Source of the DNA: Candidatus Kaiserbacteria bacterium GW2011_GWA2_52_12
GTDB taxonomy: Bacteria; Patescibacteriota; Minisyncoccia; Phycocordibacterales; UBA2100
Reading direction: 5' to 3'
NCBI GenBank assembly: GCA_001004345.1
Contig: LCQW01000006.1
Coordinates: 656-64,655 of the forward strand
Length of the DNA: 64,000 nucleotides
The translations under genes and the position numbers were made by a program. The notes beneath the pieces are model-generated. The model had not been told where the DNA came from. It did not search any database and saw nothing but the letters and a program-made list of their open reading frames with translations. Shown one piece after another: positions 11,741 to 61,035 of the stretch. The stretch's first letter is position 1; every line of letters starts with the position of its first letter.

Positions 11741-11743
11741 ACG

Positions 11744-12127: not shown

Positions 12128-12130
12128 ACG

Positions 12131-13285
12131 TCAGCTCGTTTTAGTGATGAGTGTTCGTATTGCATCGAGTCCCTTCTTGATACGCTCCGGAGATTCCGTA
12201 CCTATTCCGACGCGCAGGAAAGAATCTAGCGACTTGCCATAGCCCAGTCCCGGCACCGTGGCCACATGATCCTCCTTGAGGAGCCGTGTCGCGAATTCTT
12301 CGGAAGAGAGCTTGGACGGCACTATCGAGACAGTGAAGTAAAAGGTGCCCGTGCCCGGCAAGCGCTCGAGCCCGATCGAATCCATATAGCGGCCGATCTC
12401 TTTTCTCAAACTCAGTAATTTCTTGATCTGCGGGAATGTCTTTTTGAGGATAGCGTCGAGATATTTGATCACGTAGAGCTCTACCAGAGTGGCTGGGCAC
12501 GTAATGATGTGTTGGTTGAGCTTGAGGATCGCGTTGATGATCTTTTCATTGGCGATAACGTATCCGATGCGCAATCCCGACATACCCATATTCTTTGAAA
12601 GTGAGTTCACCACGATCACGCGTTCCTTTTTCTTGTCGAATATCGCCATCGAATGGAACGGCTCTTCGTCTACGAAATCGCTGTATGCTTCGTCGGAAAG
12701 AATATACAGGCCGCGGCGCTTCGCGAAATCGTAAAGCTGTTTAAGCTCTTTCTTCGAGTACACTTTTCCGCTCGGATTGTTGGGGTTGTTGATGATGACG
12801 GCTTTCGTGCGTTCAGTCACGTATTTGTTAATGTCCGCAACTCCTTCGTAATGCGGGACCATCATGGGGACAGCGTAGGACAGACGCACTTGCTCGGTAT
12901 AGCTCACCCACGCGGGTTCAAAGATAATGACCTCATCATCAGGACAAAGAATGGTGCGTAACGCCATGTAGATAACCGCCTTCGAACCGGCCGTCACGAG
13001 AACCTCCGTGTTCGGATCGGAACTGACGCCATACTGCTTCTCATAGAAGCGACTGATTTTTTCCCGCAGCTCGAAAATGCCGCGTGAATGCGAATAGTGG
13101 TAACCGCGCACATAGTCGAGATCCGTAAATGAATAGAACGGGATGTCGAAAAAAGACTCCCCGAGCGAGAGGACGATCACGTCCTTCTTTTTTCGCTGCA
13201 ATTCGTAGACGAGGTTGTTGTACCGTATCGATGACGCCTCGGCAATTGCCTCTACGAGCTGCGACAGTGGCAGGGTTTTCCTCAT
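12131..13285 (-). CDS. Class I/II PLP-dependent aminotransferase
   Basis: SLSKNMGMSGLRIGY PLP-lysine region. Length 384 aa. Confidence 0.75.
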   Translation of the reverse strand: MRKTLPLSQLVEAIAEASSIRYNNLVYELQRKKKDVIVLSLGESFFDIPFYSFTDLDYVRGYHYSHSRGIFELREKISRFYEKQYGVSSDPNTEVLVTAGSKAVIYMALRTILCPDDEVIIFEPAWVSYTEQVRLSYAVPMMVPHYEGVADINKYVTERTKAVIINNPNNPSGKVYSKKELKQLYDFAKRRGLYILSDEAYSDFVDEEPFHSMAIFDKKKERVIVVNSLSKNMGMSGLRIGYVIANEKIINAILKLNQHIITCPATLVELYVIKYLDAILKKTFPQIKKLLSLRKEIGRYMDSIGLERLPGTGTFYFTVSIVPSKLSSEEFATRLLKEDHVATVPGLGYGKSLDSFLRVGIGTESPERIKKGLDAIRTLITKTS

Positions 13286-13387
13286 ACAGGATTGAGCTTA
13301 CTTTATGTAAAGAACATAGGCAACTACCTTCCGAATCCTTATTTGGTTTTGAACCATGGACAAAAAATTGGGTCATCCAGCGTGTAA

Positions 13388-13660
13388 TCATCTTTTTTTA
13401 CGTTTTTTCTCAATGATCTCTGCGAGCCCGTCGATGGTCGCAAAACTCCTTTCCTGAAATTCTTCGTTAGAAAAATGAATCTCGAACTCATCTTCCAGTG
13501 CCGAAATGAGCGTGATGACACTGAGTGAATCGATCCAGCCTCTATCAAAATAGTTGTCTCCGGCGTGCCGCTCGACCTCCACTTCCCCACCCGCCACCTG
13601 ATGACCGAACCACTCTATGAGCCAGCGCCGTACATCCTGATGTTTCTGATTTTTTGACAT
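13388..13660 (-). CDS. Second small carrier protein (ACP/peptidyl-carrier-like)
   Basis: 90-aa acidic protein with a GWIDSLSVITLISALE serine attachment-site motif. Confidence 0.6.
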   Translation of the reverse strand: MSKNQKHQDVRRWLIEWFGHQVAGGEVEVERHAGDNYFDRGWIDSLSVITLISALEDEFEIHFSNEEFQERSFATIDGLAEIIEKKRKKR

Positions 13661-13731
13661 GACGGAATTGAAATATTTTTGACTTACTTCACAATTCTTA
13701 CTAAATGCGAACCCCGTGTCAATCGATGAAC

Positions 13732-14436
13732 TCAGGCTTCGATACCAATGATCTCGACCGGTGAGACGAACGGTCCGGTTACAAAAAAGAAACTGAGCTG
13801 TTTACCGTGAACTTCTGACCGCTCAATATCTGTCACCTCAAAACCCAATTCCCGTAACCGCTCTCTGTCACGACGAGGCGAAGTGCAGACGAGCGCGAAA
13901 TACATAAACCCATACGCGTCGAGGGAAAAGTGTTGGGGCAAAAAAGGATCCTCGACGAGATAGAAATGAAAGGCGTGATTTTGGAACGGAGATCGAAATT
14001 GCAACTCGCACCTACCCACATCCCTTGCCACGTGTTTACACCCCAACCCGTCCACCCACAAACGCGTACTCGCCGCGATGTTCGCGACCTTGATCACGAA
14101 CGACCGTGTCGGAGACCCATCACGCCGCAGGTTCGGGATCCTATCCGACCGCGTTTCAATATCCGTAAGTAACACATTATCAGTAATGGGAAAAATGAGC
14201 GAGAACACATCTTCAGATCGACCCTGCTCGATAACTTCTACGCTCATCGCCTCCGGAGCGTCAAAAAAAGAGATGTTGATCGTAGGCATCAGCTCCTTCA
14301 CGAACGGCCGCTTGATCTCAAGATTCCGAACTCCTCGATCTGTAAAACGCTCACGGTATCCAAGCTCCGAGAAAAGCCTTCGATACGGCTCGAGCATCGG
14401 AGAAGAGAATGTAACGTGGTCAAATTGACTTATCAT
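13732..14436 (-). CDS. Hypothetical protein (possibly a two-domain VOC/glyoxalase-like fold)
   Basis: ORF only; no confident motif. Confidence 0.25.
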   Translation of the reverse strand: MISQFDHVTFSSPMLEPYRRLFSELGYRERFTDRGVRNLEIKRPFVKELMPTINISFFDAPEAMSVEVIEQGRSEDVFSLIFPITDNVLLTDIETRSDRIPNLRRDGSPTRSFVIKVANIAASTRLWVDGLGCKHVARDVGRCELQFRSPFQNHAFHFYLVEDPFLPQHFSLDAYGFMYFALVCTSPRRDRERLRELGFEVTDIERSEVHGKQLSFFFVTGPFVSPVEIIGIEA

Positions 14437-14501
14437 ACGGATCTCTATTGAACTCGTCGCACGAGACCGGCTGCCTCAAGCGCGAACTTTCGGACATATC
14501 A

Positions 14502-16304
14502 CTACTGATTGATCGAATACACTTTGTAAAAATACGAATTTGTATTAGCGAGAAGTTCTTGAGGAGTGCCTGTTTCAACTACCTTTCCTTCAGAGAGAAC
14601 TATTAGCTGATCAGAATCCATGATGGTGGAAAGGCGATGCGCTATCGCTATGATAGTAAGCCGCCCCTTCAATTCTTCGATAACCCGCTTGATGTGCGCC
14701 TCGGATTCATTGTCGAGTGCGCTCGTCGCCTCGTCCAGAATGAGGATCTCCGGTCTGCGCGCGAGCGCGCGTGCTATGGTAATGCGCTGACGCTCACCTG
14801 CGGAGAGCAGGATGCCCCGCTCACCCACCATCGTGTCGAGCCCTTCGGGAGATTGTTTTATAAAATCGTCGATCTTCGCGTTCTTCGCCGCCTCCCAAAC
14901 AGCATCGTCGGTGATCGACTCATCGTAAAAACGGATGTTATTGCGAATAGTGTCCTGCAGCAAAAAGAAATCCTGCGAAACGTATGCCACCTTCTTGCGC
15001 CACTCCGGAAGCCGTATCTCCCTGCAATCGACGCCGTCGAGCGTAATTGCGCCTTGTGTTGGTTCGAGCAATCGCAACATAAGGTCGACGCTCGTCGTTT
15101 TCCCCGCACCCGACGGCCCTACTATCCCGACCATGTTTCCCTTCGGGATGGAGAACGAGATGCCGCGCAATATCTCTCTACCGCCTTCATAAGAAAACAG
15201 GACGTGATCGAATGAAAGTTCGTCCTTAAATGAGAAAGGTTGATCACCGCCGAGCGATTCCACCCGCTCACCCGCGTGCTCGGAAAAGTGGATAACGCGC
15301 TCCAAATGCGGCCCGAGCTCGCTCACATATTGAACCGTGTTCTGCAGCTGCTGCACGTAGGTAAAAATACGATAGATGAGATAAAGAATTGCCGGCAACG
15401 CCGCGAATGATATGAACGGTGTCTTGAATGAAAGTGCGAGTATCGCCGCAATGTATATGATGCCGATCGGAGCAACGGCTTGCATCGCGATCGCTTGAGT
15501 GAAGCCGATACGGTTGGTAATGGTCATGATATTTCCGAACAAGGTGTCGGCGAGAGAGATCGTCTTCCCTTCCACCCCGAACGCCTTTACGCTCTTCAAT
15601 CCGGCCACATGCTCTCCCACATGATGCATTGTGTCGCGATAGAGAAGCGTGCGCGAACGCGAACGATCACGCACTCGATCCATGAGCGGTCGAAGTCCGA
15701 CGAATGTGAGAGCACCAAGAAAGGCCGTGGACAGCATCACGGGCGCAGAGATAGAGAACGCGACAACGAGGTACATCAAGAGGCTCGTTATGAGCGGTAT
15801 CGCAGAACTGATCTTTGTAAGCACTTGGGTACTCGCCGGTACGTCTATCATGAGCGCCGTTTCGAGATTGCCGAGCTTCTGGCGCAGGAGATAGGGCCAC
15901 GATGAACGAATGAATATGTTGAAAAGTTTTGATTGCGTTGCGCGTAAGTATTCGTTTGAGATACGGATCTGGATGTAGCTTAAATACAGCGTAACGATCG
16001 CTTTTCCGATAAAAAGTACGACTATGAATGTCAGAATGTATCTTGGGAAGAATGGAACATGTATCCACGTGAAAAAATCTTTGATGTATACGGAGAGCGC
16101 ATCGGTCGCGGCGTCATGGAGACCGAGTACCGAGGACAAGAGCGGGATGACCGCGTTGATTCCTATACCCTCCAGAATGCCGCTGGCAAAGCCGAGTCCG
16201 GTGAGCGTAAGAATCTGCTTTTTATATGGTGCAAACGCTTTGCGAGCCAGTCGAGCAAGACTCGCCATTTGAGAGTATATATTTTGAGGTTCTGCCGTAT
16301 CCAT
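14502..16304 (-). CDS. ABC exporter, fused permease/ATPase (MsbA/PglK-like; candidate flippase or exporter for the glycan or its lipid-linked precursor)
   Basis: N-terminal 6-TM domain followed by GPSGAGKTT, LSAGERQRITIARAL and ILILDEATSALD motifs. Confidence 0.85.
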   Translation of the reverse strand: MDTAEPQNIYSQMASLARLARKAFAPYKKQILTLTGLGFASGILEGIGINAVIPLLSSVLGLHDAATDALSVYIKDFFTWIHVPFFPRYILTFIVVLFIGKAIVTLYLSYIQIRISNEYLRATQSKLFNIFIRSSWPYLLRQKLGNLETALMIDVPASTQVLTKISSAIPLITSLLMYLVVAFSISAPVMLSTAFLGALTFVGLRPLMDRVRDRSRSRTLLYRDTMHHVGEHVAGLKSVKAFGVEGKTISLADTLFGNIMTITNRIGFTQAIAMQAVAPIGIIYIAAILALSFKTPFISFAALPAILYLIYRIFTYVQQLQNTVQYVSELGPHLERVIHFSEHAGERVESLGGDQPFSFKDELSFDHVLFSYEGGREILRGISFSIPKGNMVGIVGPSGAGKTTSVDLMLRLLEPTQGAITLDGVDCREIRLPEWRKKVAYVSQDFFLLQDTIRNNIRFYDESITDDAVWEAAKNAKIDDFIKQSPEGLDTMVGERGILLSAGERQRITIARALARRPEILILDEATSALDNESEAHIKRVIEELKGRLTIIAIAHRLSTIMDSDQLIVLSEGKVVETGTPQELLANTNSYFYKVYSINQ

Positions 16305-16440
16305 CGCTATTACCGTACCACATTATTCGTAGATGGCCTTAGACCGTGACTGTGCCGAAAAAATATGACATCATCGAGAAAACGCACCATTCGTATGCTT
16401 CGAATGAAAGGTATCAAACCCCATGGCAAGCCCTGTACCC

Positions 16441-16542
16441 GTCCAAAAAACGCATGCGTTTTTTGGACTGTTCCGCGGCAAGCCGCGGGGTTTTCACCTT
16501 TGCTGCCTGCGTCGCTCGGAAATGAAAACAAGTTTTCATTTC
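16441..16542. promoter_or_regulatory. Cluster of three perfect palindromes in the SDR-to-ABC intergenic region: GTCCAAAAAACGCATGCGTTTTTTGGAC (16441-16468), CCGCGG-caag-CCGCGG followed by GGTTTT (16473-16494), and GAAATGAAAAC-aa-GTTTTCATTTC (16519-16542)
   Basis: Seen directly in the sequence. They lie between two same-direction minus-strand genes, so they are a candidate operator, terminator or small-RNA region. Confidence 0.5.
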
Positions 16543-16571
16543 ACTCACTATCCTCGGCAGATAAAAAATAA

Positions 16572-17261
16572 TCAAAGTGCGGTCACTTCCCCCGGTATGG
16601 CAATGGACGACGAGGGTTTATATGCGGCGGCATCGTTACATATGGTTTTGACAACATCTGCAACTGCTTCTGCGTTTGTCATGCCTGCGCCCGTCTTCTT
16701 GGCCAACATCTCAAGAATGGCCTGCGGCACGCCCTCATTCAACCCCCCCGCAATATATCCTGGAGCGACCGCATAGACCCGAATTTCTTTTTTTTCATTA
16801 TTTTGGGCAAGAATACGCAGAAAATTTCGAAGAGCCATCTTGGCGGGAATGTATGAACCCATCGGCATCGGCGTTGTGCCGGACTCGATGAGTTTCGTGG
16901 TGATACCAATAAATGCCGCTCCATTTTTCATATGCGGTAAGGCCGCGGCAGCTAGATTTTGAGCGCCATTGAGGGTAACTCTCATCTGTAAGTCCGACTC
17001 ACTTTTATCCTTACCCATGCTCGCCACCGCTGCATGAATACATGCATCTATTTGACCTGATGTTTGAATAATATTTTCAACAACAGAAGCTACCGCTCTT
17101 TGGTCTGTGATGTCGCATTTGTATATATCGTCGCCGGATTGAGTACTGGAGAGCACGGCGACACGCCAACCACTCTTCTTCAACGTCTTTACTATCGCAC
17201 TGCCAATGTGACCTGTCCCGCCCGTCATTACGGCAAGTGGCGCATTTTTATGCTCGATCAT
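16572..17261 (-). CDS. SDR-family oxidoreductase (ketoreductase, FabG-like)
   Basis: MTGGTGHIGSAIV Rossmann motif and YAVAPGYIAGG. Confidence 0.65.
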   Translation of the reverse strand: MIEHKNAPLAVMTGGTGHIGSAIVKTLKKSGWRVAVLSSTQSGDDIYKCDITDQRAVASVVENIIQTSGQIDACIHAAVASMGKDKSESDLQMRVTLNGAQNLAAAALPHMKNGAAFIGITTKLIESGTTPMPMGSYIPAKMALRNFLRILAQNNEKKEIRVYAVAPGYIAGGLNEGVPQAILEMLAKKTGAGMTNAEAVADVVKTICNDAAAYKPSSSIAIPGEVTAL

Positions 17262-30858: not shown

Positions 30859-31427
30859 GCGTAAGATGGCGGTCACTTTGAGCGATTCGACGATGTCTCG
30901 CCACGTGCTTTTCGACGTGTCGTGTTCGCGCGAGCGAAATGTGATGGGCACTTCGATGACCCGCGAGCCACTTTCTGTCATGTCCGCAAGCAACTGTATC
31001 TTGTACGCATAGTGGCGGGAGAGGAGCTTTTCCGGCTCCGGTTCCGTCTGGCCACACGCCAACTGGATAACTTTCGGGAGATTCGAAAAACCAAGAGGAC
31101 TATCGCCAGGCTGCTGACCGACGTGAGACACCGGCAGCTGGCCTCTGAGGAAAGCCATGCTGCATACTCCAATGCCTGGATAATGTCATCATTTTCATAG
31201 GCCATCGCGATGCCGCGCTTTTCCGGCTCATCGAACAGATAGATGGCCGGGTCGCTCGCCGCTTTCTCGCGCACGATTTTTGCCGTACCATCGGTCGAGT
31301 GGCCGTCAACTACAAGCACGGACCATTCGTACTTCGGCATCTCGCACAGCGACGCACGCACTTCATCAAGAAGAGCGCCGATCGAGCCGGCTTCGTTGTA
31401 CGTCGGTATGATGATAACGATGCGCAT
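30826..31427 (-). pseudogene. GtrB/DPM1-like GT2 (polyprenyl-phosphate glycosyltransferase) split across two reading frames: frameshifted pseudogene, or a sequencing error
   Basis: N-terminal half (MRIVIIIPTYNEAGS...VVDGHSTDGT...EKRGIAMAY) is in one frame. C-terminal half (SPLGFSNLP...SRVIEVPITFRSREHDTSKS) is in the +2 frame. The switch lies near 31150-31200 and no single ORF covers both halves. Confidence 0.6.
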
Positions 31428-31438
31428 GAGTGTAGGTC

Positions 31439-33091
31439 CTATAATCGGTATATCACAATATTCGGGCCGAGCAATTTTGGCTGGAACAACACAATGAACG
31501 GCTCCGTGAACGCGCTCTCCCACAGCGACATTGGTGCCTCAAAACCGTCGAACCGCACGGCCACGGAAGCGTCTTTCGTGAGTGACGCGAGAGATTCTGC
31601 CATTGCAGGCATCCCGGGCAAAGAACGCAGCTCGATCACAACGTATGTATAGTCATGCTGCCTGGCATATTGCGGCAAGTTCTTGGCAAAAACAGACTCC
31701 GAGATCGACGTGAGATTATTCAATACGTATGGGACATCACGACGATCCATCGCCTCATCGGCTTCGTCTATTTTCCGCAAAGCAGTCGGCTCGATGGAGC
31801 GCAATTCCTTCACCGCCGCTTTTTGCGTGGAAATGTGCAACGCCGAGGAAAAAACGAGCACGCGGTCATTTGGCTTCAGATTTTCAAGGACCCACTCGCG
31901 CGCAAGCGCACGCGTATCGCTTTGCATAGACAGATACGAAAGTCGGCCGGCTACGAGAAGTGGAATTACAAGAAGAATGCATACAAAAGCCGCAAAGCGG
32001 CGGCCCCAGAGCCTAGATATCGCATAGCCACCGAGTATGGAAAGAAAGGGAACGAGAGGAACGACGAAACGACCCTCGAAGTAAAAAAGTACGTAAAACG
32101 CTGCAACGTATACGGCAAAAAATGCAGCGATAAGCGTTCCGATTCTCTTTGCCGAGAGTGCGCAAAAAATCATGCCGAGTGCGGATAATCCCACCAACAC
32201 TGGTTCGGAAAATACAATGAGACGGATCGCGGACCATGGACTCATGAGAAAATCCACGAGCGTCTTTTGTTGATGGAGCGAAATAGTGCCAAGAAAATTG
32301 TGTCCTCCGTGATAGAGAAGCCACGCGAGTACCGCGAGCGCAAAAAAGATAAGTGCGCCAAGCATCAGGAGCGGGACATCGCGCATAATATGCCGAAATT
32401 TTGGCGCGTCGAAACAAAGATAATAGATGCCTATCAGGAGACATGCGAGCGCCGAGATCGCAGAGATTCCCATCCCGATACCCGCCGCGGCGAACGCCGT
32501 GAGATAGCGCCTGCGTACGCTCCAAGTATCTTTGACGAGTAGGAACAGAACGACAAGAAAAACGAACGAAACGGGGAGCCATTGCCTCCCCACCATCGAG
32601 AGTGCCTCGTGGAGCACGCTCGTGGCAAGCAAGAATGCGGCAGCGGAGGCCGCAACTCGTGAACGAAACAGTTTTTCAGCGATGCGATACACAAGATATA
32701 CGGATGCTGTCCCAAGAAGTACCGTTACCAAGCGTGCGGCAACGAAGAACGGTGAAAGGTCCAGGAGCACATGCGCTTGAAAGAGCGCCGGGGCGCCATG
32801 CCAGAGCAGATATTGCAATCCCAAGATGACGGAAAATGGAACGAGAAGAATGTACGATAAATACGGCGGATAATACAAGACCGTTTGAAATTCAGGATGC
32901 AGAGCCGGCAGGATAGTGTGAAGCTGTATCATCAAAAGCGCGGCAAAAGTGTACGGCGCTTCGTCATTCACGACGGCAAGCGGTAGTCCGTATCCTACGC
33001 CGACGATTCGCAATAAAAATGCGAGCAGGAGGAGTGAGAGAAGCACCCACTCTTTTCGAATTAACGGTTTAATTTTTTTGTACCAATCCAT
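31439..33091 (-). CDS. GT-C fold membrane glycosyltransferase (PMT_2/ArnT-like)
   Basis: More than 10 TM helices and a DEAPYTFAAL loop-1 motif. Start at the MDWYKK ATG, which overlaps the upstream GT4 gene by 23 nt. Confidence 0.6.
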   Translation of the reverse strand: MDWYKKIKPLIRKEWVLLSLLLLAFLLRIVGVGYGLPLAVVNDEAPYTFAALLMIQLHTILPALHPEFQTVLYYPPYLSYILLVPFSVILGLQYLLWHGAPALFQAHVLLDLSPFFVAARLVTVLLGTASVYLVYRIAEKLFRSRVAASAAAFLLATSVLHEALSMVGRQWLPVSFVFLVVLFLLVKDTWSVRRRYLTAFAAAGIGMGISAISALACLLIGIYYLCFDAPKFRHIMRDVPLLMLGALIFFALAVLAWLLYHGGHNFLGTISLHQQKTLVDFLMSPWSAIRLIVFSEPVLVGLSALGMIFCALSAKRIGTLIAAFFAVYVAAFYVLFYFEGRFVVPLVPFLSILGGYAISRLWGRRFAAFVCILLVIPLLVAGRLSYLSMQSDTRALAREWVLENLKPNDRVLVFSSALHISTQKAAVKELRSIEPTALRKIDEADEAMDRRDVPYVLNNLTSISESVFAKNLPQYARQHDYTYVVIELRSLPGMPAMAESLASLTKDASVAVRFDGFEAPMSLWESAFTEPFIVLFQPKLLGPNIVIYRL

Positions 33092-38375: not shown

Positions 38376-40895
38376 TCACGCCGAACCGGCCTCTTGGAAC
38401 CCTCCCACAAGCGCCTTGAGAGCATACTCAAAGCGCCCTTTTCCCTTGTCTGGGAAGAGCTTGAGCGCTTCCGAGACGATATGGCGAGCAACGATAACGG
38501 GTAAATGATTCAAATCCTTCACAGTTTCACCGCGACTTTTAGGAGTTGTGTATATTTGTTTGACCGATTTTGCGGCATCGGTGAGCCCCAAGCCGACCAC
38601 GACTGCGCCCGTGTTGCCGAGTTCTTCCGCGAGCGCGTGGACGCGGGCCGGATCGTCCGGTTCGCCGTCGCTCATGGGGAGCACGATACGCAAGCGGTTA
38701 TCTTTCTTTCCACCCGCTTCCGTCGCTTTAATATCCTCCTTGATCTCGCGGAGCACAGTTTGGAGGGCTTGCACGTCGCCGTTGCCGCTTCCCTGATTGC
38801 CAAGGCTTCGCCACAAAGTGACCTTCTCCGCCGCCTCGAATCGAGGCGAGAGCGGTTTGTCAACGTCAAGTTCCTTGACGCCTCCGCCCCTGAAAGAAAG
38901 AACTTCCGTGCGTACATCGAGAGAACTTCCGGGAAGCGCCGCAACGCCCGAGCGAACCAACTTTTCTTGAAAACGGTGAAGCGCCGAGAGAAGAAGATAA
39001 TTCATTGTGCGCTGAGTTTTCCATTTCACGGCACCGTCAACCGTTTGCGACATCGAGCCCGATTTGTCGTCAATGAACCACACGTCAAATCCCCCGAAAA
39101 GTTGTTCCTCTTTGGGCGTTTCTGTTTCTTTGATTCGCGAGCGAGGGTCTTGTTCGCCCGACACCGCTCCGATATGTTGCGCGACGATATCATCGATGCG
39201 TTCACCCCCTTCGCGTCGGCGCAGAGGACCAGAATATTCCGATTCGAAAGAGAGGCGAGAATCGACAATCATATCGAAAAGCTGCGAGAGAGCATTAGTC
39301 ACCTTACGACCATCTTTCAGCCGAGCATCTTCGGCTTGTGCAATCTCCCGCGCGATGTCCCGTGCTTCAGAAAGTTCTATTTTTGCCTCCTCGGCAAGCG
39401 CACGCTCTTCGGGAGTATACGAAAGTTCTTCAACGTGTTTCGCCAACTCTTCCTCAAGTTTTTGTAGCTGCTCATCAGTCGGGCCGACATCTTCTTGCCC
39501 GCCATAGTCACCGGGAGCGGATTCGCCGCCCTCTCCTTCTTGATCGATCTGACTATTGAAGATGGGATCGCCCGGAGGCGTCGCATCAACGCGCATCCAT
39601 TCTCTCGCTTGGTCATCCCATATCTCGCTCCATGCGTGGCCCGTGCCGCTGTGAATCATGCTCGTCCCTTTTTCATTTTTGCCCTTCACCATATGACCGA
39701 CGACGTGACGCGCTGGAACGCCGAGCCGCGCGCAGAGGGCCGCGAAGTAGGTGTTTCCAACATCGCAATCGGCCTTCTTATGCGTGTCTATTGCAAAGCA
39801 GTAGCCGTTCGGATCTGAACGATACGTGTTGTTGAATTGGCTTTCGTTGGAATATTGGAGCCGTTGCATCACATAGCGCGCAAGAGCAAATCCTCTCGCG
39901 CGATTGCCTTGTTTCGTTTTCTCTATTTCCGCGATTACGCGCTCGGTGTCTTCGGTGAAGCGTTCGGGAAATGCAGCAGACGCTTCCGGAGCTCCAATTT
40001 TCAGACGCGACGCTTCCGATTTCACTCGCGTCCAAGCACCGCGCTGCACATTAGCGGAAATGGTAATAGAGTCGTTCTCTGCATTGCCTTGTCCGAGTTT
40101 GTCTTCTTCATACGCATAATCGCTCTGCTTCCACACCTTGCGCTCGGGATCCCAAGTATCGAACGACTGTTCGCGGAAGTATCCGCCATATGCTGGATTG
40201 ATTTTCCAGATCGCAGTAGGTTTCTCTCCTTTCTCAAGGCGGCTCATCTCATCCATTGAAGGCTCGCTCTCCTCGCGTGCCGGAGGAGGGATTGGATCGT
40301 CCGATGGCTTCTCGCGCACTTCTCCCTGTTCTTGTTCTTTCGTGCGATCACGTTCGTCGAGGACATTCGCCCCCGCAATGTAATTATCAAATCGTTTCGT
40401 CAGATATTCTGTCTTGCTGGCGAGCGGCGCACGAGGATTTAGAAGGTACTGCAAATCTCCGCTTTCGGAGAGTTCCGCTAATTTGCCTTTGGTCATTTCA
40501 AATCGCGGTTCGTATGGAGTCCCGTCAACTTGCGAAAGAATGCCTCGAAAGAGATCTGTCGCGCGAGGAGATAATTGGCGGACGGTTGCGGAAAGTCGAT
40601 CAGCGAGAAGTCCCGCCAGTGCGCTCCGCGCGCTCTGCGGCATACGCGCGGCACCTAGCTCCGAAAACTCCTCGAAGAGTCGATAGAACGAGCGAGCAGG
40701 AGAGGTGCTTCCTCTTTGACGCCAATCATTCAAGGCCCGCACGCGGTCGTACTGATCTTTTGCGGATTCGTATTCTTCAATCTGGAGGGCACCAAATAAT
40801 TGTCGTTTTGAAAGAATATCGTCCAATTTTTGCGAGAGAGGCTCAGTTTTCGTATCGAGCGATTTTAGTATTTCAAAATCTCTAGCTTTTGGCAT
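38376..40895 (-). CDS. Large protein with a transglutaminase-like cysteine-protease core and a C-terminal von Willebrand factor A (vWA) domain
   Basis: TGase triad motifs GYCFAID (Cys), GTGHAWSEIW (His) and WMRVDATPP (Asp). vWA MIDAS motif DDKSGSM. Long acidic coiled-coil-like linker. Confidence 0.6.
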   Translation of the reverse strand: MPKARDFEILKSLDTKTEPLSQKLDDILSKRQLFGALQIEEYESAKDQYDRVRALNDWRQRGSTSPARSFYRLFEEFSELGAARMPQSARSALAGLLADRLSATVRQLSPRATDLFRGILSQVDGTPYEPRFEMTKGKLAELSESGDLQYLLNPRAPLASKTEYLTKRFDNYIAGANVLDERDRTKEQEQGEVREKPSDDPIPPPAREESEPSMDEMSRLEKGEKPTAIWKINPAYGGYFREQSFDTWDPERKVWKQSDYAYEEDKLGQGNAENDSITISANVQRGAWTRVKSEASRLKIGAPEASAAFPERFTEDTERVIAEIEKTKQGNRARGFALARYVMQRLQYSNESQFNNTYRSDPNGYCFAIDTHKKADCDVGNTYFAALCARLGVPARHVVGHMVKGKNEKGTSMIHSGTGHAWSEIWDDQAREWMRVDATPPGDPIFNSQIDQEGEGGESAPGDYGGQEDVGPTDEQLQKLEEELAKHVEELSYTPEERALAEEAKIELSEARDIAREIAQAEDARLKDGRKVTNALSQLFDMIVDSRLSFESEYSGPLRRREGGERIDDIVAQHIGAVSGEQDPRSRIKETETPKEEQLFGGFDVWFIDDKSGSMSQTVDGAVKWKTQRTMNYLLLSALHRFQEKLVRSGVAALPGSSLDVRTEVLSFRGGGVKELDVDKPLSPRFEAAEKVTLWRSLGNQGSGNGDVQALQTVLREIKEDIKATEAGGKKDNRLRIVLPMSDGEPDDPARVHALAEELGNTGAVVVGLGLTDAAKSVKQIYTTPKSRGETVKDLNHLPVIVARHIVSEALKLFPDKGKGRFEYALKALVGGFQEAGSA

Positions 40896-52579: not shown

Positions 52580-54124
52580 CTATTTCACCTTGTACACGCG
52601 CAGTCGCGATACCGGTTCGTAGACGAACTGCAGGTGGTCAAATACATTGTCGACCCCGAGGAAATAATTGTACCGATAGCCGATATATACATCGTAATCG
52701 GCCAGATAGTCGATCTTTTCATCATGAATGTACTGCCAGAGTTTTTTCTCTTTCAATGCCGCAAATGCAGAATTATTTACGAGCCCGTCCAGATTCACCA
52801 CGCGGTGCGTCGAGAAATATCCCTGCACGCCGGCATTGAACGCGCCTATCACGGCACCTTTTGGCACATTTTCATTCATCCAGACTGTTCCCTTGATGAT
52901 ATCAACGGGCATAGAATTTTTGCTTTTCGATATCTCCCTGCTCCAGTTGATGTAGAACACCGAGAGTGAAAATAGGATAAGCACCGTCGCAACGAGTGGT
53001 CGCATGTATCCTTCCTCGCGAAGTTTTTCCAGAAACCACGCGAGCCAGATAGCGATCAAGAGATCGACGGCGATGAAGTACCACGGGCGCACCGTCCACC
53101 GTATCGATGCGTTCGCGATGAAATCAAGTACGAATCCAGACGCAACGAAAAGTTCGACGGGTATTCTGTATCTGTCTAGAAGGGCGCGGCCGCGGCCGAA
53201 CGCCAGATAGCCGATACAAAGACCGCTCATGAGAAGGAGAATGAGCGGGATGCCCGTCTGCGGCTCGAGATCGCGAAGCGCGTTGTCGGTAAAATATGCG
53301 ACAGCTTTGCCACTCTGGAACCAGCTTGGTCCGTGATCTTGAACGATAAGCTGATGGTTGACCATCGTGCTGGCCAGTGACGAAGATGTAAAGAGCATGC
53401 CGAAATTTACAAAGTTGAACAGGAGCCACGGCGCGACCAGTATCGTGGCCGCAATGCCGCTTACGAGTATGGGGCGAACACTTTTTTTGACGCCGTCGCG
53501 ATATGCAAGATATGCAAGATATCCGAGAAAATAGAACACATTGTCGAGCCGCGCGAGCATCATCAATCCCCCGATAATTCCTGTCTCGACGAAACGACGC
53601 GTCGTTGGTTTTTCACCAACACGGATGCATGAAAGAAAGAATAGTGCGATGAAGAAAACAGAAAGTGACGTTTCAAGTCCGTTCAACATTTGATATTGTA
53701 CGAAAGGATTGAAGAACCAAAAACCGAGCGCGCCCACCTTTACCCACGCATTTTTCGTATACCGGCCGATTATTGCAAGCAAAACCACTCCGGTCGCTGC
53801 GTACAGAAATGCCGACAGCACAAGTACCCCCTGTATGGGCGCGAAGTCATGCACGCCCGAGGCGGAAAGGTAGTGGAATACGGGAAGAATGGCGAGGAGC
53901 CACAGTGGATGATATCCGTTGGTCAGATGCACGCCGTCGAACGTCGACCCTAATCCATGGACGATGTTGCGGGCGATCTGAAAATAATAGAAAGAGTCGT
54001 CAATAACGAGGTACCCGAACACGAATTCGAATGACCGGAGTGCAAGAAAAAGTGAGAACGCGCCTCCGATGAGGATGACGAGGAGCGGCAGCCAGTTGGT
54101 CCTGATGAATTGCATAGATGGCAT
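52580..54124 (-). CDS. Polytopic membrane protein, probable GT-C-like glycosyltransferase
   Basis: More than 10 TM helices with a DDSFYYFQIARNI first-loop motif. Confidence 0.4.
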   Translation of the reverse strand: MPSMQFIRTNWLPLLVILIGGAFSLFLALRSFEFVFGYLVIDDSFYYFQIARNIVHGLGSTFDGVHLTNGYHPLWLLAILPVFHYLSASGVHDFAPIQGVLVLSAFLYAATGVVLLAIIGRYTKNAWVKVGALGFWFFNPFVQYQMLNGLETSLSVFFIALFFLSCIRVGEKPTTRRFVETGIIGGLMMLARLDNVFYFLGYLAYLAYRDGVKKSVRPILVSGIAATILVAPWLLFNFVNFGMLFTSSSLASTMVNHQLIVQDHGPSWFQSGKAVAYFTDNALRDLEPQTGIPLILLLMSGLCIGYLAFGRGRALLDRYRIPVELFVASGFVLDFIANASIRWTVRPWYFIAVDLLIAIWLAWFLEKLREEGYMRPLVATVLILFSLSVFYINWSREISKSKNSMPVDIIKGTVWMNENVPKGAVIGAFNAGVQGYFSTHRVVNLDGLVNNSAFAALKEKKLWQYIHDEKIDYLADYDVYIGYRYNYFLGVDNVFDHLQFVYEPVSRLRVYKVK

Positions 54125-55188
54125 TATTGTATTTCTTCGGCCAGACGCCCCACGAGTGCATGCAGACTATTGGCTTCGGCAAGCTTCTTACCCTCTTCCC
54201 GCATACGGTCTTTTTCGAGCACTGATATCTTCAGCATTTCTTTCAGTTTGACCGCCAGATCGCGTGCTGTACCGTCGAACCACAGCCGCGGGTCGGCTAC
54301 TTTCTTATAATCCTCGCTCGAGGCTATCGCAAGCGCGCCGCACGCGAGCGCTTCGAAAATCGTTTTGTCGTACATGCCGCTCTCGCTGCAATTGACGAAC
54401 AACTCATGCGCGCCGTAGAGCGCCGGTGTTTTTTTATTGCTGATGCCGGAATGGAATTGGATGAGGTGCTCGAGCCGCGCCACAATGCAGCGTTGCCGGA
54501 GGCTCGCTTCATACGCGGCATCCTGCGGAAACGCATCTCCGTAGATGTGCGCCTTCAATTGAAAACCGCTTTCCGTAAGTATGCCGATGGCATCAATAAG
54601 TATCTCGAGCCGCTTCGAGGGGGCTATGCGACCGATCGAGAGCACCGATTCTTTCCGCGGCATTTCTTCCACTTTGAATATTTCCGTATCAATGCCGACT
54701 GGCATTACAACCGTCTTCGCATATTTTGCAGTGTATGAATACTTCGAGGTGCAGAAAACCTTGGCGCACAAAGAGGCCGCCCGGTCAGTCGCCCCGCCGC
54801 CAGCGTAGTGATTGCGCCAGAGGTACACGGGTTTGTGAAGCACTTTCCACAGCCATCCCGCGATAAGTATGTACTCTTGATTCATGTGGACAAACACCGC
54901 GTCGTAGCGGAAGCTCAAGCGCAGCACAAGCCTGAGAAAACGCAGCCCGTACCGAAGTCTCTGCGACAACGTTGAACGAACATCCGCCCACGCTTCGGCC
55001 TTTCGTTTACCGAGCGAGTACACTTCCACGTTGGCCGGTAGTACATGCCTGCCCTCCGACAAACAAAAGACGATGACATTATCAAAACGCGTCGCCAGTT
55101 CCTCTATCCACCGGTGAAAAAACCCGAGGCCCGGATTATCGAGATCAACGGCTTGTGTTACTATCAATAGTTTCGTTTTCGTCATCAT
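54124..55188 (-). CDS. Glycosyltransferase family 4
   Basis: GT-B fold with GFFHRWIEELATRF in the N-terminal domain and a GT4-like C-terminal domain. 1-nt TAATG overlap with the downstream gene. Confidence 0.7.
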   Translation of the reverse strand: MMTKTKLLIVTQAVDLDNPGLGFFHRWIEELATRFDNVIVFCLSEGRHVLPANVEVYSLGKRKAEAWADVRSTLSQRLRYGLRFLRLVLRLSFRYDAVFVHMNQEYILIAGWLWKVLHKPVYLWRNHYAGGGATDRAASLCAKVFCTSKYSYTAKYAKTVVMPVGIDTEIFKVEEMPRKESVLSIGRIAPSKRLEILIDAIGILTESGFQLKAHIYGDAFPQDAAYEASLRQRCIVARLEHLIQFHSGISNKKTPALYGAHELFVNCSESGMYDKTIFEALACGALAIASSEDYKKVADPRLWFDGTARDLAVKLKEMLKISVLEKDRMREEGKKLAEANSLHALVGRLAEEIQ

Positions 55189-57065
55189 TATGAACGCATC
55201 TCCCCACCCGGACGCGCGAGCATCTCAAGCATGGCAGGTACGACTGAAGAAAGTGAATGCTCGCGCCGGACATACGCACGCACGCGTTCCCTCTCTTCCG
55301 TGCGATATTCATCGGAAAGAGAACGCGCAGCGTGCAGCGCTTTCATGATCGCGTCTTCCGTCGGTTCTTTTACAAAGAGCCGGTCGTCGACGACGCCGTG
55401 CATGTTCGCGTCTGACGTGACGACAATGTCGCCTGCAGCCATTGCCTCAAGAAGCGTTTTATTGAATCCCCGCAGGGTACCCACATGAATGAAGATGTCG
55501 TGCGTCCCGTACACGGAGGGTGTTTCAGCATGGGAGATGCCGCCCCGATACGCGAGCACTCCTTTCTCCTCCAATCCTCGGAATTGCGACCGCAGCTCGC
55601 TCGCATATGGCGCGTTCCCGGGTCCGGGGGCTCCAAAAACGTCCGTGTGCGGCGCATCTCCCATACGGGAGAGCGCTTTGAACACGCTACCCAGATGTTT
55701 GGCGGGTGAAATACGGCCGAGGAACAGTAGTGAACCGGGCTCCCGAATATGTTCCTCCGCATACATATCGGTATCAACGCCCATCGGAATTTTACGCGCA
55801 TGAGAAAAGCGCGCCGCGTAGGAGTCGGGATTGGAATAAAAGACGACATCGGACAGTGTGATTGCGAGCCGCGTACGCCAGCCACCGGCAGTGTCGTTGT
55901 ACCAGAAGCCCACGCGTTTTTTCAGCAGTCGCCATACAAAACCGGCGACAAGTAAATATTCCGGCGACAGATGCACGAGCACCGTATCGTAATCATGGCG
56001 ATTTCTCCACGCATGGCGTAACAATCGAACTGAATACACGACACGCTTCAGTAAGCGGGATCCCAGCGCCGATTCCTTGCCGAGTGAGTGCTCGATGACA
56101 TTGCCGGGCAACCGCCCGCCGCCGTAGCCGAGACATATGACGTGCACGCGATGTGCATGGCGCGCAAATTCTTCAAGCCATCGGTGGAAAAATCCGAGCA
56201 ACGGGTCGGTGCGGTCGATCGCTTCGGTGCACACAAGCACGCGCATCCGCCCTCGGACGGAGCTTAATTTTTCGATCTCGACTTTTTCATACGGGCCCTC
56301 GATAACACCAGTGCCATATACATCCGTAAGCAGGTCGAGGTCTTTGCCGGAAGAGCGCAGTAGTTCGATGTTCTTTTTCTCCATCGCATCAAATACGGCG
56401 ACACCCGACGAGTCTCCGAATTGTTTTTCATATTCGCGCCTTATGGCGGCGACGTCTTTGATAAAACAATGGCCGCCGGCCCCGCGACCGCTCTTGTGAA
56501 CGGGTCGCGCATAGCGATTGCACACCAAAGGATCGTTCTCTATCGCTCGCTGTACCGATTCCCAGTCGCAGCCTTTTTGCTTCGCCAACTCGTACATCAG
56601 GTTGAAAAAAACTATCTGCGTATACGCACTGCCATTGTGCGAGTATTTGATTATTTCAGCTTCGGTGCTGGAGCACGTATGCGAGAACGGCGCCGGAGGA
56701 AGAATGCCGTGAATTTCTGCGGCTTTCGCCTTTTGCTCTGCCGTGTCATAGGTCAGGCCCACAACGTTCATGAACGGATGCGACGCATCATGCGCCGCCG
56801 TCGCTTCGCTCAAAAATTCCGGAGAGTAGATGACTGTGCGATCAGGAAACTCTTCCTGGAATTTTCTCGTCGTACCCGGGACGATGGTCGATTTGATGAC
56901 CGCCGTCTTCCCCCTGCCGACGAGCGAGATCGCATCCTTCACGATATGCGCACTGAATCCCCCGAGTGTCGTCGGGGTCGGTACCGCGATGAACACATAG
57001 TCGCACTCTTGTATCTTGTCTTTATTCGCCCGATACGGCTCCTCGAGCGCATAGCGGTCGTGCAC
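55188..57065 (-). CDS. Fusion protein: N-terminally truncated UDP-glucose/GDP-mannose-6-dehydrogenase-like domain (lacking the GxGxxG Rossmann start) fused to a GT4 glycosyltransferase. GTG start.
   Basis: CDYVFIAVPTPT, SPEFLSEATAAHD and GGHCFIKD (catalytic Cys) from UGDH, then MRVLVCTEAIDRTDPLLGFFHRWLEEF...GT4. No ATG and no Rossmann beta1-alphaA region upstream; a stop codon in this frame lies 18 nt upstream. Confidence 0.55.
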   Translation of the reverse strand: MHDRYALEEPYRANKDKIQECDYVFIAVPTPTTLGGFSAHIVKDAISLVGRGKTAVIKSTIVPGTTRKFQEEFPDRTVIYSPEFLSEATAAHDASHPFMNVVGLTYDTAEQKAKAAEIHGILPPAPFSHTCSSTEAEIIKYSHNGSAYTQIVFFNLMYELAKQKGCDWESVQRAIENDPLVCNRYARPVHKSGRGAGGHCFIKDVAAIRREYEKQFGDSSGVAVFDAMEKKNIELLRSSGKDLDLLTDVYGTGVIEGPYEKVEIEKLSSVRGRMRVLVCTEAIDRTDPLLGFFHRWLEEFARHAHRVHVICLGYGGGRLPGNVIEHSLGKESALGSRLLKRVVYSVRLLRHAWRNRHDYDTVLVHLSPEYLLVAGFVWRLLKKRVGFWYNDTAGGWRTRLAITLSDVVFYSNPDSYAARFSHARKIPMGVDTDMYAEEHIREPGSLLFLGRISPAKHLGSVFKALSRMGDAPHTDVFGAPGPGNAPYASELRSQFRGLEEKGVLAYRGGISHAETPSVYGTHDIFIHVGTLRGFNKTLLEAMAAGDIVVTSDANMHGVVDDRLFVKEPTEDAIMKALHAARSLSDEYRTEERERVRAYVRREHSLSSVVPAMLEMLARPGGEMRS

Positions 57066-59251
57066 GCACGGATATCATCGCAGTATGCGCGCACGTATTC
57101 GTCAAAATTCTTGTACGGATAGCTTTTGAGATGGCCCTCCCATGGTCCATGTTTGAACCACTCCGCGAGCGCATCCCCGAATTTATCCGGCGACGTAACG
57201 ATAGCCCCCGCCTCGCGCGCGATGCCCACGTCAGTCGAAAGCACGGGTGTTCCAGCGGCAAGCGCCTCCACGATGACGAGTCCATACCCTTCGTATTTCG
57301 ATGGGACGAGGACAAGATCCGCGCTCTTAAAATATCTCTCAGGATCGACCGCGCCGACACGGAAGATCCGCGAGTCGCCACGAACGGCTGGGTCGGTCTC
57401 GCCGACGATAATAAGACACGAGTTTGGCGGAGCAACGCGCTTGAATGCTTCAGTGGCGAGATGAATGTTTTTTTCTGCTCCGACACGGGATACAACAAGC
57501 AGCTTGTACTCGAATTTTTCTATTCCTTCTGGCCACTCGTGCAACCTCTCCGCGTTCTTGAATTTTTCTATATCAACGAAAATCGGCAGTACCGTGATCG
57601 GAATTTCAAGGCGAAACCTTGACATGAAACTGCTACGGATTCGGTCGGAGACGACGCGGGTCCTTGTGGCTCTCTTCAAGACGAATCCGGCAAGCCACAC
57701 GCGCGCGCGATTTACCAGCGAAAGCCGCGCATATTCAGGAGAGAGGAAATCGGTATGTACCTGCACATGCAGCGGCACGCCTTTCATCCGTGCGATGAGC
57801 CAACCGGCAAATCCCGCTTCGAACGGATCCTGTACAGACACGACATCCGGTTTTGGAATGTCGCGGGCGATCTCGAGCGCATCGAGCCCGTAGAAAAGCG
57901 GCAATATTGAATTCGTCGGATACACCTGCACATGAGGAGATGCCGCGAACGGCGTTCTTCCATCTGACGTGCGAGAAAAACCGATGATGTCGAGGCGACC
58001 GAATGTTGCGCCGTACGCTTTTTGTCGTAGCATGGCCGCAGAGTCCGGATATAAAATGCCGCGCTTCGAACGATCCGCTCCGATCTGCAGCACTCGCACT
58101 TCGGATTCAGTTTTCCCGACCACAGAAGCAAATATGGCGCGGTGCTCATCCACTACCTCGCTCCAATCGTGCCGAAATGTGATGGCCTTGAATCGAGCAA
58201 CAAAATCACCGTAGGTGCGTTCATTAGCGAGTATTTTCAGTTTCGATGCGATATCATCAATCGAATCGGGATCTATCATTTCCGGCAACTGATCGCGTAT
58301 CTTCAGATAATTTTCTTTCGTAACAAGGCCCGGCAATCCGATGGCGAGCGCTTCGTGGACCTGGTTCGGGGAGATATCGGTCCAGCTCGGAAGCACGAAG
58401 GCACGCGCGTCTTTAATGCGTGCAAAGACTTCATGCGGACGCATCACTGGTTCCATTTTGACGCGCCTTTCAAGACGGAGTTCTTGGATCGTCTCAAGGA
58501 TTTTTGCCGCTTGCGGACCGGATCCGATGAGAACGAGCGCATACGGGTCCGGCAACTTGGCGCGCGCGAATGCGCGCACGAGCGTCGTCACGTTTTTCAT
58601 GACATTAAATCGTCCCCAGTACACGAATTCATGATTCGGTCGTCCGCGTCTGATCGCGGCGAGTTCGGTGCGTGGTACGGGATTATAGCTGACCGATACG
58701 GAACGTGCCGACAAATGATACGGCCGCAGGTAGAGTTCTTTTTGCACATCGGAATTAAAGATGACATGTCGCGCACCCGAAAGAACAAACCGAATGATGC
58801 GGTACAAAAGATAGTAAGTGCCGTGCGTGTACATGCGGCGCGTATAGAATTCGGCGAGTGTAATGGGACGTGCGCCGGATTCGAGATACCATTGTTCCCA
58901 CAGATAGTCCCCGCCGATGCGCACAACATATGGTTTTCCCAGAAATTTTGCGGCGAGCGCGACGGGAAGCCCGACCGCGAATACATCGAGTGTGTAGATC
59001 AGGTCACGGTCACCCGCATGCCGAAGCATCGCAAGGAAAAATCGTATACGGTTGAATATCTTTCCGCCACGTTTGATGCGGACAAGCTTGAACGGATACG
59101 AAGTATCGAAATCATACGCAGCGCGCGTAGAGTAGGTGAGCACGGTGACATCCCATCCCTTTTCGGTCAGCAACCGAGCCAATTTTTGGGCAAACGTGGC
59201 CGGCCCCCCCGCCTCCGGCTCGAAAATACCCGTCGCAATAAGAATGCGCAT
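56939..59251 (-). CDS. Tandem double GT4 glycosyltransferase. The last roughly 40 codons are probably non-native read-through into the UGDH region.
   Basis: Two complete GT-B/GT4 units. The first starts MRILIATGIFEPEAGGPATF; the second contains KLLVVSRVGAEKN...YEGYGLVIVEALAAGTPVLSTDVGIA. The ORF then continues as an Arg/Ser-rich tail overlapping the next gene by 127 nt. Confidence 0.65.
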   Translation of the reverse strand: MRILIATGIFEPEAGGPATFAQKLARLLTEKGWDVTVLTYSTRAAYDFDTSYPFKLVRIKRGGKIFNRIRFFLAMLRHAGDRDLIYTLDVFAVGLPVALAAKFLGKPYVVRIGGDYLWEQWYLESGARPITLAEFYTRRMYTHGTYYLLYRIIRFVLSGARHVIFNSDVQKELYLRPYHLSARSVSVSYNPVPRTELAAIRRGRPNHEFVYWGRFNVMKNVTTLVRAFARAKLPDPYALVLIGSGPQAAKILETIQELRLERRVKMEPVMRPHEVFARIKDARAFVLPSWTDISPNQVHEALAIGLPGLVTKENYLKIRDQLPEMIDPDSIDDIASKLKILANERTYGDFVARFKAITFRHDWSEVVDEHRAIFASVVGKTESEVRVLQIGADRSKRGILYPDSAAMLRQKAYGATFGRLDIIGFSRTSDGRTPFAASPHVQVYPTNSILPLFYGLDALEIARDIPKPDVVSVQDPFEAGFAGWLIARMKGVPLHVQVHTDFLSPEYARLSLVNRARVWLAGFVLKRATRTRVVSDRIRSSFMSRFRLEIPITVLPIFVDIEKFKNAERLHEWPEGIEKFEYKLLVVSRVGAEKNIHLATEAFKRVAPPNSCLIIVGETDPAVRGDSRIFRVGAVDPERYFKSADLVLVPSKYEGYGLVIVEALAAGTPVLSTDVGIAREAGAIVTSPDKFGDALAEWFKHGPWEGHLKSYPYKNFDEYVRAYCDDIRACTTAMRSRSRIGRIKTRYKSATMCSSRYRPRRHSGDSVRIS

Positions 59252-59387
59252 ACAGCTACTCTATAGCAAACACCGCCCGCACGCACGCTGACACTGCGAA
59301 TTGTCCGCGAGCCAACCACACCCAAGTCCTGCGGAGTAATGTGTGTGATTTTCCCTATGCCCATAGCTCCCATTTTTCATTCTAATA

Positions 59388-59448
59388 TTTTGCAAAACGT
59401 TTGTTTAGAAACACAGTCGTTATTTCTTATTGCAGTGTTTTGCAAAAC
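59388..59448. promoter_or_regulatory. Two copies of the palindrome TTTTGCAAAA (59388-59397) and GTTTTGCAAAAC (59437-59448), 50 bp apart, upstream of the double-GT4 operon
   Basis: Seen directly in the 209-bp AT-rich intergenic region; candidate operator pair. Confidence 0.45.
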
Positions 59449-59460
59449 ATTATAACAAGA

Positions 59461-60966
59461 TCATGACCATACGCCGCAACATTTCTTAAATTTCTTATCC
59501 GATCCGCATATGCATGGATCATTCCTGCCTGGTTTAACGACTACACCGTCTTTGGTACGGAATATTGTTGGCGTGGTTTTCGTCGCATATTTTAACGATA
59601 TACTACACTTTGTGAGAAAGTCCTCGTAGCGCCTAAAGACGGAGCGCCGATAGCGACGCACACCATCAGCGTCCGCAGTGCAGAGTAGAAGTTTTGAAAA
59701 CCTTGCATCCTTTTTCGATAGACCGGAAAAATCTTCATATGGGTCGAGGAGTCTTTGTTTTTGCCGTATGCCGAAGTCGTATGATGGATTGAGACGCAGG
59801 CACGCGCGCGTAAGCTCGCGTCCGAGCGGATCAGCCCCTTCAGACTTCATGAGGAGGCACGCCGAGGCGTTGGCGTATATACGAAAAGCGGTAATGATGG
59901 GGACTTTATCGTCAAGTAATCGCCTAATCAGTGCTTCGAACGCTTTATACGATTGAGTATTTTCATTCTTTTTCATCAGCGCATGCGCGGCACGTATATC
60001 ATCCGTATAATCGCTATAGTGAAAAAGATCGAGGTCAAAATGTTTATCATTCGGACCTTGCGCCGCCGATGCCTCAAGCGGCGTCTTCCCTTTCAATTGC
60101 CGTCTCGGCAAGTTGTTGAGATACACGTTCAGTGTCGAAAGCACCACGTCGCGCTTCTGCTCTGATAGTTCTTCCGGTAACAAAAAGAATATTGCTTTCA
60201 TCGGAAAGCCAAGTGCAAATGTGCGCTCATTGGATGTCCATATTTTAACGGTGTCGCTCGAAAGCATATCCTGCATACCCGACGCTTTGAGCGCATTATC
60301 AAAAAGGTGCGCGGCTTCTTCTACAGGGACAACTCTTTGATCGCCGATCAATTGCGGTTTTTTCTCTTCAGTGACACCTCTCTGGTATGCCCACTTGGCA
60401 GCTTCACGCGCATCGACAATATCTCTCCCCCTGTTCGTCATCACTGCTTTCATGTTTTTACTGAAGGTTATCGGTGCGGAAAACATTGTACTGCTCGTCA
60501 TCTGATAGACACCACGCACCGATGCAATGCGACACCACACCGTATCGCCCTTTTTGAGCGACATGCTCGCGTTTACGTCTGCCACGTCGTACGCGACCCC
60601 GCCGTCTTTGAGCACAACGCCCTCGCCAGGTCTGACGGCAGCTATATCAAAAAAGTTCGCTCTGAAATACAAAAGGTCACGATAGGCTGCCATTTCACTC
60701 TCGGGCAGTTTCAGTGGGTTATGCTCGATAAAATACTCAAGACCAGTCTTGCCAGCAAAAATCCGTGATTTCTTGTCGAAGATCGTCCACTCCGTAAAAA
60801 GTCCCTCGAGTTTATGTGGGTCGCCGCCTTCATCAGTAAGTGACCGAATATCAAAAGCATCAAGCGCCGCTTCCATCTCTCGCGGATGCTCATACAGTCG
60901 CCGAGACACCCACTCTGCAAGAGTTCCTATAAAACCGGGACGAAGCATGGCGCATTTGTACCACAC
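59461..60966 (-). CDS. Hypothetical protein with a C-terminal SEC-C (SecA-type) zinc-binding motif
   Basis: C-terminal RNDPCICGSDKKFKKCCG. Confidence 0.5.
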   Translation of the reverse strand: MWYKCAMLRPGFIGTLAEWVSRRLYEHPREMEAALDAFDIRSLTDEGGDPHKLEGLFTEWTIFDKKSRIFAGKTGLEYFIEHNPLKLPESEMAAYRDLLYFRANFFDIAAVRPGEGVVLKDGGVAYDVADVNASMSLKKGDTVWCRIASVRGVYQMTSSTMFSAPITFSKNMKAVMTNRGRDIVDAREAAKWAYQRGVTEEKKPQLIGDQRVVPVEEAAHLFDNALKASGMQDMLSSDTVKIWTSNERTFALGFPMKAIFFLLPEELSEQKRDVVLSTLNVYLNNLPRRQLKGKTPLEASAAQGPNDKHFDLDLFHYSDYTDDIRAAHALMKKNENTQSYKAFEALIRRLLDDKVPIITAFRIYANASACLLMKSEGADPLGRELTRACLRLNPSYDFGIRQKQRLLDPYEDFSGLSKKDARFSKLLLCTADADGVRRYRRSVFRRYEDFLTKCSISLKYATKTTPTIFRTKDGVVVKPGRNDPCICGSDKKFKKCCGVWS

Positions 60967-61035
60967 GAATAAGAACTCGAATAGGTCTGACCTTGATCTC
61001 TATAAAAATGTCTGGGCTCACGCGCCATTAGATCT

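Follow-up and report, generated by a model that had tools for sequence, protein, structure and literature searches.

The question raised by this locus is whether a double-GT4 gene that runs into a headless UGDH-like gene reflects a deletion in the organism, a functional arrangement of the two genes, or an error in the deposited sequence. The window (the whole stretch of 64,000 nt that we analysed) contains here, all on the minus strand, a 770-aa ORF with two complete GT4 modules (59251..56939), a GTG-started ORF of 625 aa with a UGDH-like part followed by a GT4 domain (57065..55188), a GT4 ORF of 354 aa (55188..54124), and a gene for a PMT_2-like membrane protein (54124..52580), as assigned with Pfam. 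The first of these ORFs extends 127 nt (56939-57065) into the second. In GenBank, the 770-aa ORF is annotated as KKW24596.1, and the downstream gene is called from a GTG at 56996 as the 602-aa protein KKW24595.1 (P0122). Both proteins are encoded on one 67,329-nt contig of a Candidatus Kaiserbacteria MAG.

The reading frame of the double-GT4 gene ran past its native end and into the wrong frame of the next gene. Codons 1-731 (57059..59251, minus strand, ending in ...DDIRACT) are the native part and are identical to the 734-aa protein P0129; the GT4 modules matched Pfam profiles at 121 and 115 bits. Beyond codon 731, the frame continues as a spurious Arg/Ser-rich tail of 39 codons that is closed by a TGA stop (56939..57058, minus strand), and these last 39 residues of the 770-aa ORF read TAMRSRSRIGRIKTRYKSATMCSSRYRPRRHSGDSVRIS. 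By three-frame translation, the tail is codons 31-69 of the downstream gene, read out of frame. Since the overrun is out of frame, it creates no in-frame fusion protein. The original prediction, that a 770-aa tandem-GT4 ORF overruns the GT4 C-terminus by about 40 codons and overlaps the following ORF, was borne out, with a tail of 39 residues and the overlap at the predicted length.

The downstream gene had lost its start codon and its first 30 codons. What is present extends from codon 31 (RYALEEPYR...) to the stop (55188..57056, minus strand), encodes the UGDH-like N-terminal and central domains and the GT4 domain, and gives a product identical to residues 31-652 of an intact protein, P0121. 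There is an in-frame TGA four codons 5' of the GTG at 57065, and the GTG ORF therefore cannot extend upstream. This ORF begins with (V)HDRYALEE, and the GxGxxG motif is absent from it. Its match to the UGDH NAD-binding domain PF03721 started only at profile position 71 (residues 15-113); the central domain PF00984 matched over residues 135-215 (51.7 bits, cut-off 25.4), a stretch that includes the retained catalytic-cysteine motif GGHCFIKD. The Glycos_transf_1/Glyco_trans_1_4 signatures of GT4 in the downstream gene were PF13692 (37.7, cut-off 27) and PF00534 (36.8, cut-off 26.4). Pfam and translation thus agree with the earlier description of a GTG-started UGDH-like ORF that is fused to GT4 and retains GGHCFIKD without GxGxxG.

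The joining of the UGDH-like part to GT4 proved to be separate from the scar. Homologues of the 625-aa ORF make up a large family in Patescibacteria (Kaiserbacteria, Paceibacterota) with UGDH-like N-terminal and central domains followed by GT4; they measure 650-676 aa, at identities between 99% and approximately 35%. There was no match to PF03720, the C-terminal UDP-sugar-binding domain, in the window ORF, in the intact P0121, in P0082, or in the Pfam lists of 120 homologues. From these domain assignments, a UGDH-like/GT4 fusion without PF03720 is the native architecture conserved in Patescibacteria and not a scar.

The part of the UGDH-like/GT4 protein that is missing from the window is conserved throughout the family. 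Intact orthologues have the N-termini MAKPLIGFIGQGFIGKNYADDFERRGYETV ahead of RYALEEPYR..., with GxGxxG present. This head carries IGFIGQGFIGK, in which G7, G10, G12, and G15 are invariant. In the intact orthologue, too, 41 residues precede a PF03721 match that begins no earlier than profile position 71. The family N-terminus is compact, and the window copy lacks 30 residues and not approximately 70. Across 29 aligned family members, with identities as low as 36%, M1, G7, F8, G10, Q11, G12, G15, K16, A19, D21, R25, and G26 were invariant, placing 12 family-invariant positions within the lost 30 residues, and C227 of the catalytic cysteine motif is also invariant in the family. The lost segment is under strong constraint.

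We used an AlphaFold2 model of an intact protein that is 99% identical (P0001; mean pLDDT 85) to locate the missing residues in the fold. In the model, β1 spans residues 6-9, αA 13-24, β2 29-32, and β3, the FIAVPTP strand, 50-53. The missing 30 residues correspond in this model to the first β-α-β unit of the Rossmann fold (β1, Gly-loop, αA, and β2), which is predicted to bind the dinucleotide. It had been proposed to model the UGDH-like domain and see whether a nucleotide-binding site could still form; our model, which is of the intact form, places the dinucleotide-binding β-α-β in the segment that the window copy lacks.

Structural and sequence comparisons placed both halves of the intact protein with known enzymes. 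Searches of the PDB with Foldseek and phmmer found the N-terminal half to be nearest the UDP-glucose dehydrogenases 3phl, 2y0c, and 2q3e. Like members of the UDP-glucose/GDP-mannose 6-dehydrogenase family (K. pneumoniae Ugd, 3phl/3pid; BceC, 2y0c; human UGDH, 2q3e), the intact orthologue has a GxGxxG Rossmann domain and a central helical domain, and its GGHCFIKD aligns to GGYCLPKD of 3phl. Unlike them, the native members have GT4 in place of PF03720 and a compact Rossmann head, and the window copy additionally lacks residues 1-30. The same searches placed the C-terminal half with the retaining GT4 glycosyltransferases HepE (4xsu), BshA (6d9t), and MshA (3c48). Pfam matches to GT4 were obtained for this half of the 652-aa protein as well as for both upstream modules, and the model gave target-normalised TM-scores of 0.72-0.77 to HepE, BshA, and tll1591 (Foldseek), in line with a GT-B fold. 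Unlike in those enzymes, GT4 here sits downstream of a UGDH-like half-enzyme in one protein.

The window differed from intact loci by a single, exact block of 121 nt. In the intact loci, a SEC-C protein is followed by GT4-GT4 (734 or 742 aa), which a 21-nt spacer separates from the 652-aa gene; next come the 354-aa GT4 and the membrane protein. The intact GT4-GT4 protein ends with ...DDIRACTKEQ* (P0129, P0127), and the 652-aa UGDH-like/GT4 protein begins with MAKPLIGFIGQGFIGK.... When the window was aligned with L001, an assembly from the same groundwater population, there was one 121-nt gap in the window and perfect identity on either side. The alignment and the BLAST break points put the junction of the apparent deletion at 57057..57058 (minus strand): the former Lys732 codon of GT4-GT4 opens with base 57058, and UGDH-like codon 30 closes with base 57057. 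The block consists of the last three GT4-GT4 codons and the stop (AGGAACAATAA, that is, the rest of Lys, Glu, Gln, and stop), the 21-nt spacer (CGGCTACAATGCATAATCCAT), and UGDH-like codons 1-30 minus the last base of codon 30 (ATGGCG...GAAACCGT). The original prediction was that a deletion had removed the GT4-GT4 stop codon and the 5' end of the UGDH-like gene. Its geometry was correct, as the exact 121-nt block relative to near-identical loci indicates, but the biological origin that it implied is probably wrong; the cause is most likely an assembly error, as described below.

Several ways of producing or accommodating such a junction could be set aside from the intact allele. Neither the 57057/57058 junction nor the borders of the block in the intact allele showed a direct repeat or microhomology. 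Slippage and repeat collapse therefore do not account for the junction, and repeat-mediated deletion is likewise ruled out. Excision of a mobile element or intron was ruled out because the 121 nt are ordinary coding and spacer sequence, conserved in orthologues and without terminal repeats. Reading of UGA as a sense codon was considered because both of the relevant stops are TGA; it was ruled out because orthologues have a normal stop, spacer, and start, and because the tail is out-of-frame coding sequence.

We compared orthologous loci for a fused architecture with a conserved tail and found none; the orthologues are two separate genes without a tail. This bears on whether the arrangement could be functional, either as overlapping or translationally coupled genes or through a programmed frameshift that yields a GT4-GT4-UGDH-GT4 polyprotein. 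The two ORFs are on the same strand with their 127-nt overlap, and multi-domain fusions are common in the family, as such an arrangement would have it. However, all orthologues have a stop, a spacer, a separate start, and a GxGxxG head, the tail is the wrong frame of conserved coding sequence, and the joined frames would still be without the residues 1-30 that bear the invariant positions. We regard the probability of a functional arrangement as close to nil.

The 121-nt block was present in every independent assembly of the same groundwater population that we compared. All ten of these assemblies (L001 and L004-L012, comprising IDBA-type scaffolds, MEGAHIT k141/k127 contigs, and JGI assemblies) had the block, which was identical in L001 and L004-L011 and variant in its last 13 nt in L012. 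The flanks of the block in the ten assemblies were 100% identical to the window, and L005 was 100% identical to window positions 57058-61025. The deletion junction was found in none of them (0/10). The intact 652-aa protein P0121 is the same as KKW31274.1 of a second GenBank MAG and was found on 13 contigs (ENA, JGI, and Logan) of the same groundwater project. By cluster look-up, the 770-aa and 602-aa products occurred on one contig only, the NCBI record, and no other member of either protein cluster had the tail or the truncation.

Three further searches returned nothing. An exact search for the junction pattern in metagenome_contigs and genome_contigs gave no match, and the intact allele was absent there too, so that this population is evidently not represented in them. 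When the tail peptide was run against the protein collection, no candidates came back, and the known parent cluster was missing as well. The exact contig-index look-up of the 770-aa product was empty, though the cluster look-up had found its NCBI entry.

Not one private point difference was seen in the window at 58,066 positions, which were compared at a median depth of 5 assemblies; the comparison covered the whole window apart from 11267-17041 and the anomalous segment 31039-31197. By this measure, the window and the compared assemblies are one clonal population.

Some structural differences are shared by, or confined to, other assemblies. In the GT4-GT4 gene, L001 and L004 have a 24-nt insertion near window position 59050 (GGPSTVLGIDKIFN versus GGKIFN), giving 742 rather than 734 aa; this indel is probably genuine strain variation. 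Elsewhere in the window, two pairs of direct repeats (25231-25353/26832-26954, 123 nt and 98% identical; 25413-25461/26955-27003, 49 nt and 100% identical) bracket a gene with an AbiEii domain and a gene for a 191-aa protein. In L022 (JGI 3300009285) there is one repeat copy, and both genes are absent. The difference has the appearance of a genuine indel polymorphism that affects a toxin-antitoxin-like module.

The window contig had three private structural lesions of one size class (net losses of 121, 129, and 136 nt), each of which damages a gene that is intact in other assemblies. The second lesion is an in-frame loss of 129 nt at 40025..40026 (minus strand) in a Transglut_core gene (38376..40895), which leaves an ORF of 839 aa compared to 882 aa in L014, L015, and L018. 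In the third, at 31039..31197 (minus strand), 159 nt replace 295 nt in a GT2 gene (ORF 30978..31523), which leaves 181 aa compared to 245 aa in L019-L023. The 159-nt segment at 31039-31197 had no match within the window or in any of the fetched loci and may be chimeric or unsupported sequence.

Two of the lesions adjoin defects in one sister scaffold, scaffold_510. The right edge of the 129-nt lesion is the exact right edge of a 10-N gap in L013 (ENA scaffold_510, SAMN03202995). Next to the right edge of the 121-nt lesion, L012 (also scaffold_510) has five mismatches within 13 nt relative to nine assemblies (GGATATGCGACGGT versus GGGTACGAAACCGT). These five clustered substitutions (L012:10077-10089; P0124) result in the change E28A, and the cluster is probably another local assembly error that is now in protein databases. 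From these coincidences, the 121-nt and 129-nt sites are places where short-read assembly of this population fails.

Assembly of this region also seems to have a problem at another position. At window position 58153/58154, inside the GT4-GT4 gene, the same foreign high-GC sequence is joined in L006 (positions 442-570) and L007 (positions 1-87), and in L006 it comes after a 10-N gap. The partial protein KKW31275.1, from the second GenBank MAG, likewise opens with 15 unrelated residues at this point. The join looks like a recurrent chimera in assemblies of this site.

Taken together, we believe that the 121-nt difference is most likely a local assembly error of one deposited contig and not a biological deletion. 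We infer this technical cause from direct observations: the 121-nt difference and what it contains, its occurrence on this contig alone, and the two sister lesions. An assembly error is the likelier cause because three private lesions, each above 100 nt, stand in the contig against zero private SNPs in 58 kb, and because two of the lesions adjoin defects (the 10-N gap and the mismatch cluster) in the sister scaffold. A local assembly or gap-closure error would have dropped the 121 nt at 57057/57058 in this contig. The loss would have put the out-of-frame 39-codon tail on the GT4-GT4 gene and left the second gene headless, and in the organism itself the GT4-GT4 and UGDH-like/GT4 genes would be separate and intact.

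Errors of this type are known. Chen et al. 2020 (PMC7111523) found local assembly errors to be prominent in IDBA-UD scaffolds, counted 13 of them in a single CPR genome of 1.13 Mb, and pointed out that they carry faulty gene sequences over into public databases. In a draft genome from the same groundwater series, local scaffolding errors had to be corrected (PMC5220378). The window resembles such IDBA-UD-type MAG scaffolds (PMC7111523) in having a small discrepancy in one assembly, corrupted genes, N-gaps or unsupported sequence nearby in a sister scaffold, and several such sites per contig, a likeness that comes from comparison of assemblies. It is unlike them in density, with 3 per 58 kb compared to the published 13 per 1.13 Mb. 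The published rate, which is from one curated CPR genome, gives an expectation of approximately 0.7 in 58 kb, and the excess is a point against an assembly error.

The main alternative is a real and very recent deletion of 121 bp in a subpopulation of the Kaiserbacteria, which would have inactivated the UGDH-like/GT4 gene and put a nonsense tail on the GT4-GT4 protein. A de Bruijn assembler normally emits only k-mers that were seen in reads. Because assembly of this kind normally needs the k-mers of the junction, reads with the 57057/57058 junction may exist, which speaks for a deletion and against an assembly error. The junction is also clean, with flanks identical to the wild-type allele, and structural polymorphism is known in the population (the 24-nt indel in GT4-GT4, and L022 without the AbiEii stretch). 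A mixed-allele sample could produce trouble of the kind that scaffold_510 has right at the lesion edges, and a real minority deletion allele that confused the assembler could also account for that coincidence.

Other observations run counter to a real deletion. The allele is missing from the ten other assemblies and from the second GenBank MAG. There is no point difference in 58 kb, yet there are two further private lesions of similar size, one of them an unmatched replacement, and mutation is an implausible source of so many large lesions without a single SNP. In addition, there is no microhomology, and the deleted residues include the 12 family-invariant positions. The locus is similar to the deletion pseudogenes of reduced genomes in that the loss takes in a stop, a spacer, and the following gene's 5' end and leaves an out-of-frame tail. 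It differs from them in having no independent occurrence, no accompanying divergence, and no microhomology, and in that two further private lesions of its size class occur with it. Based on this evidence, we consider a real deletion unlikely. A broader version, in which one haplotype carries all three lesions as real, linked changes, would mean that a sub-lineage very recently knocked out several envelope and glycan genes, for example in escape from phage or host recognition, before any point divergence. We think that this is more doubtful still.

If, as we favour, the 121 nt were lost in assembly, then KKW24596.1 (770 aa) and KKW24595.1 (602 aa), as they stand in GenBank and UniProt, most likely misrepresent the proteins of the organism. 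At least two other genes of the same contig are probably corrupted likewise. Statistics on domain architecture or pseudogenes in the CPR that draw on this MAG would then include spurious fusions and truncations. Were the deletion real, it would amount only to a strain-private loss-of-function allele, a nascent pseudogene in a surface-glycan cluster and not a functional fusion. The start codon and the NAD-binding β1-loop-αA-β2 would be lost, and the dehydrogenase-like half is predicted to be dead. Translation of the GT4 half would hinge on an internal GTG, and the upstream protein would have its terminal KEQ replaced by the 39-residue nonsense tail.

The native family of UGDH-like half-enzymes joined to GT4, with a full-length form of approximately 650 aa, may deserve separate study. 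The UGDH-like part was also found alone (343-378 aa), with a different GT4, or with NAD-dependent epimerase domains.
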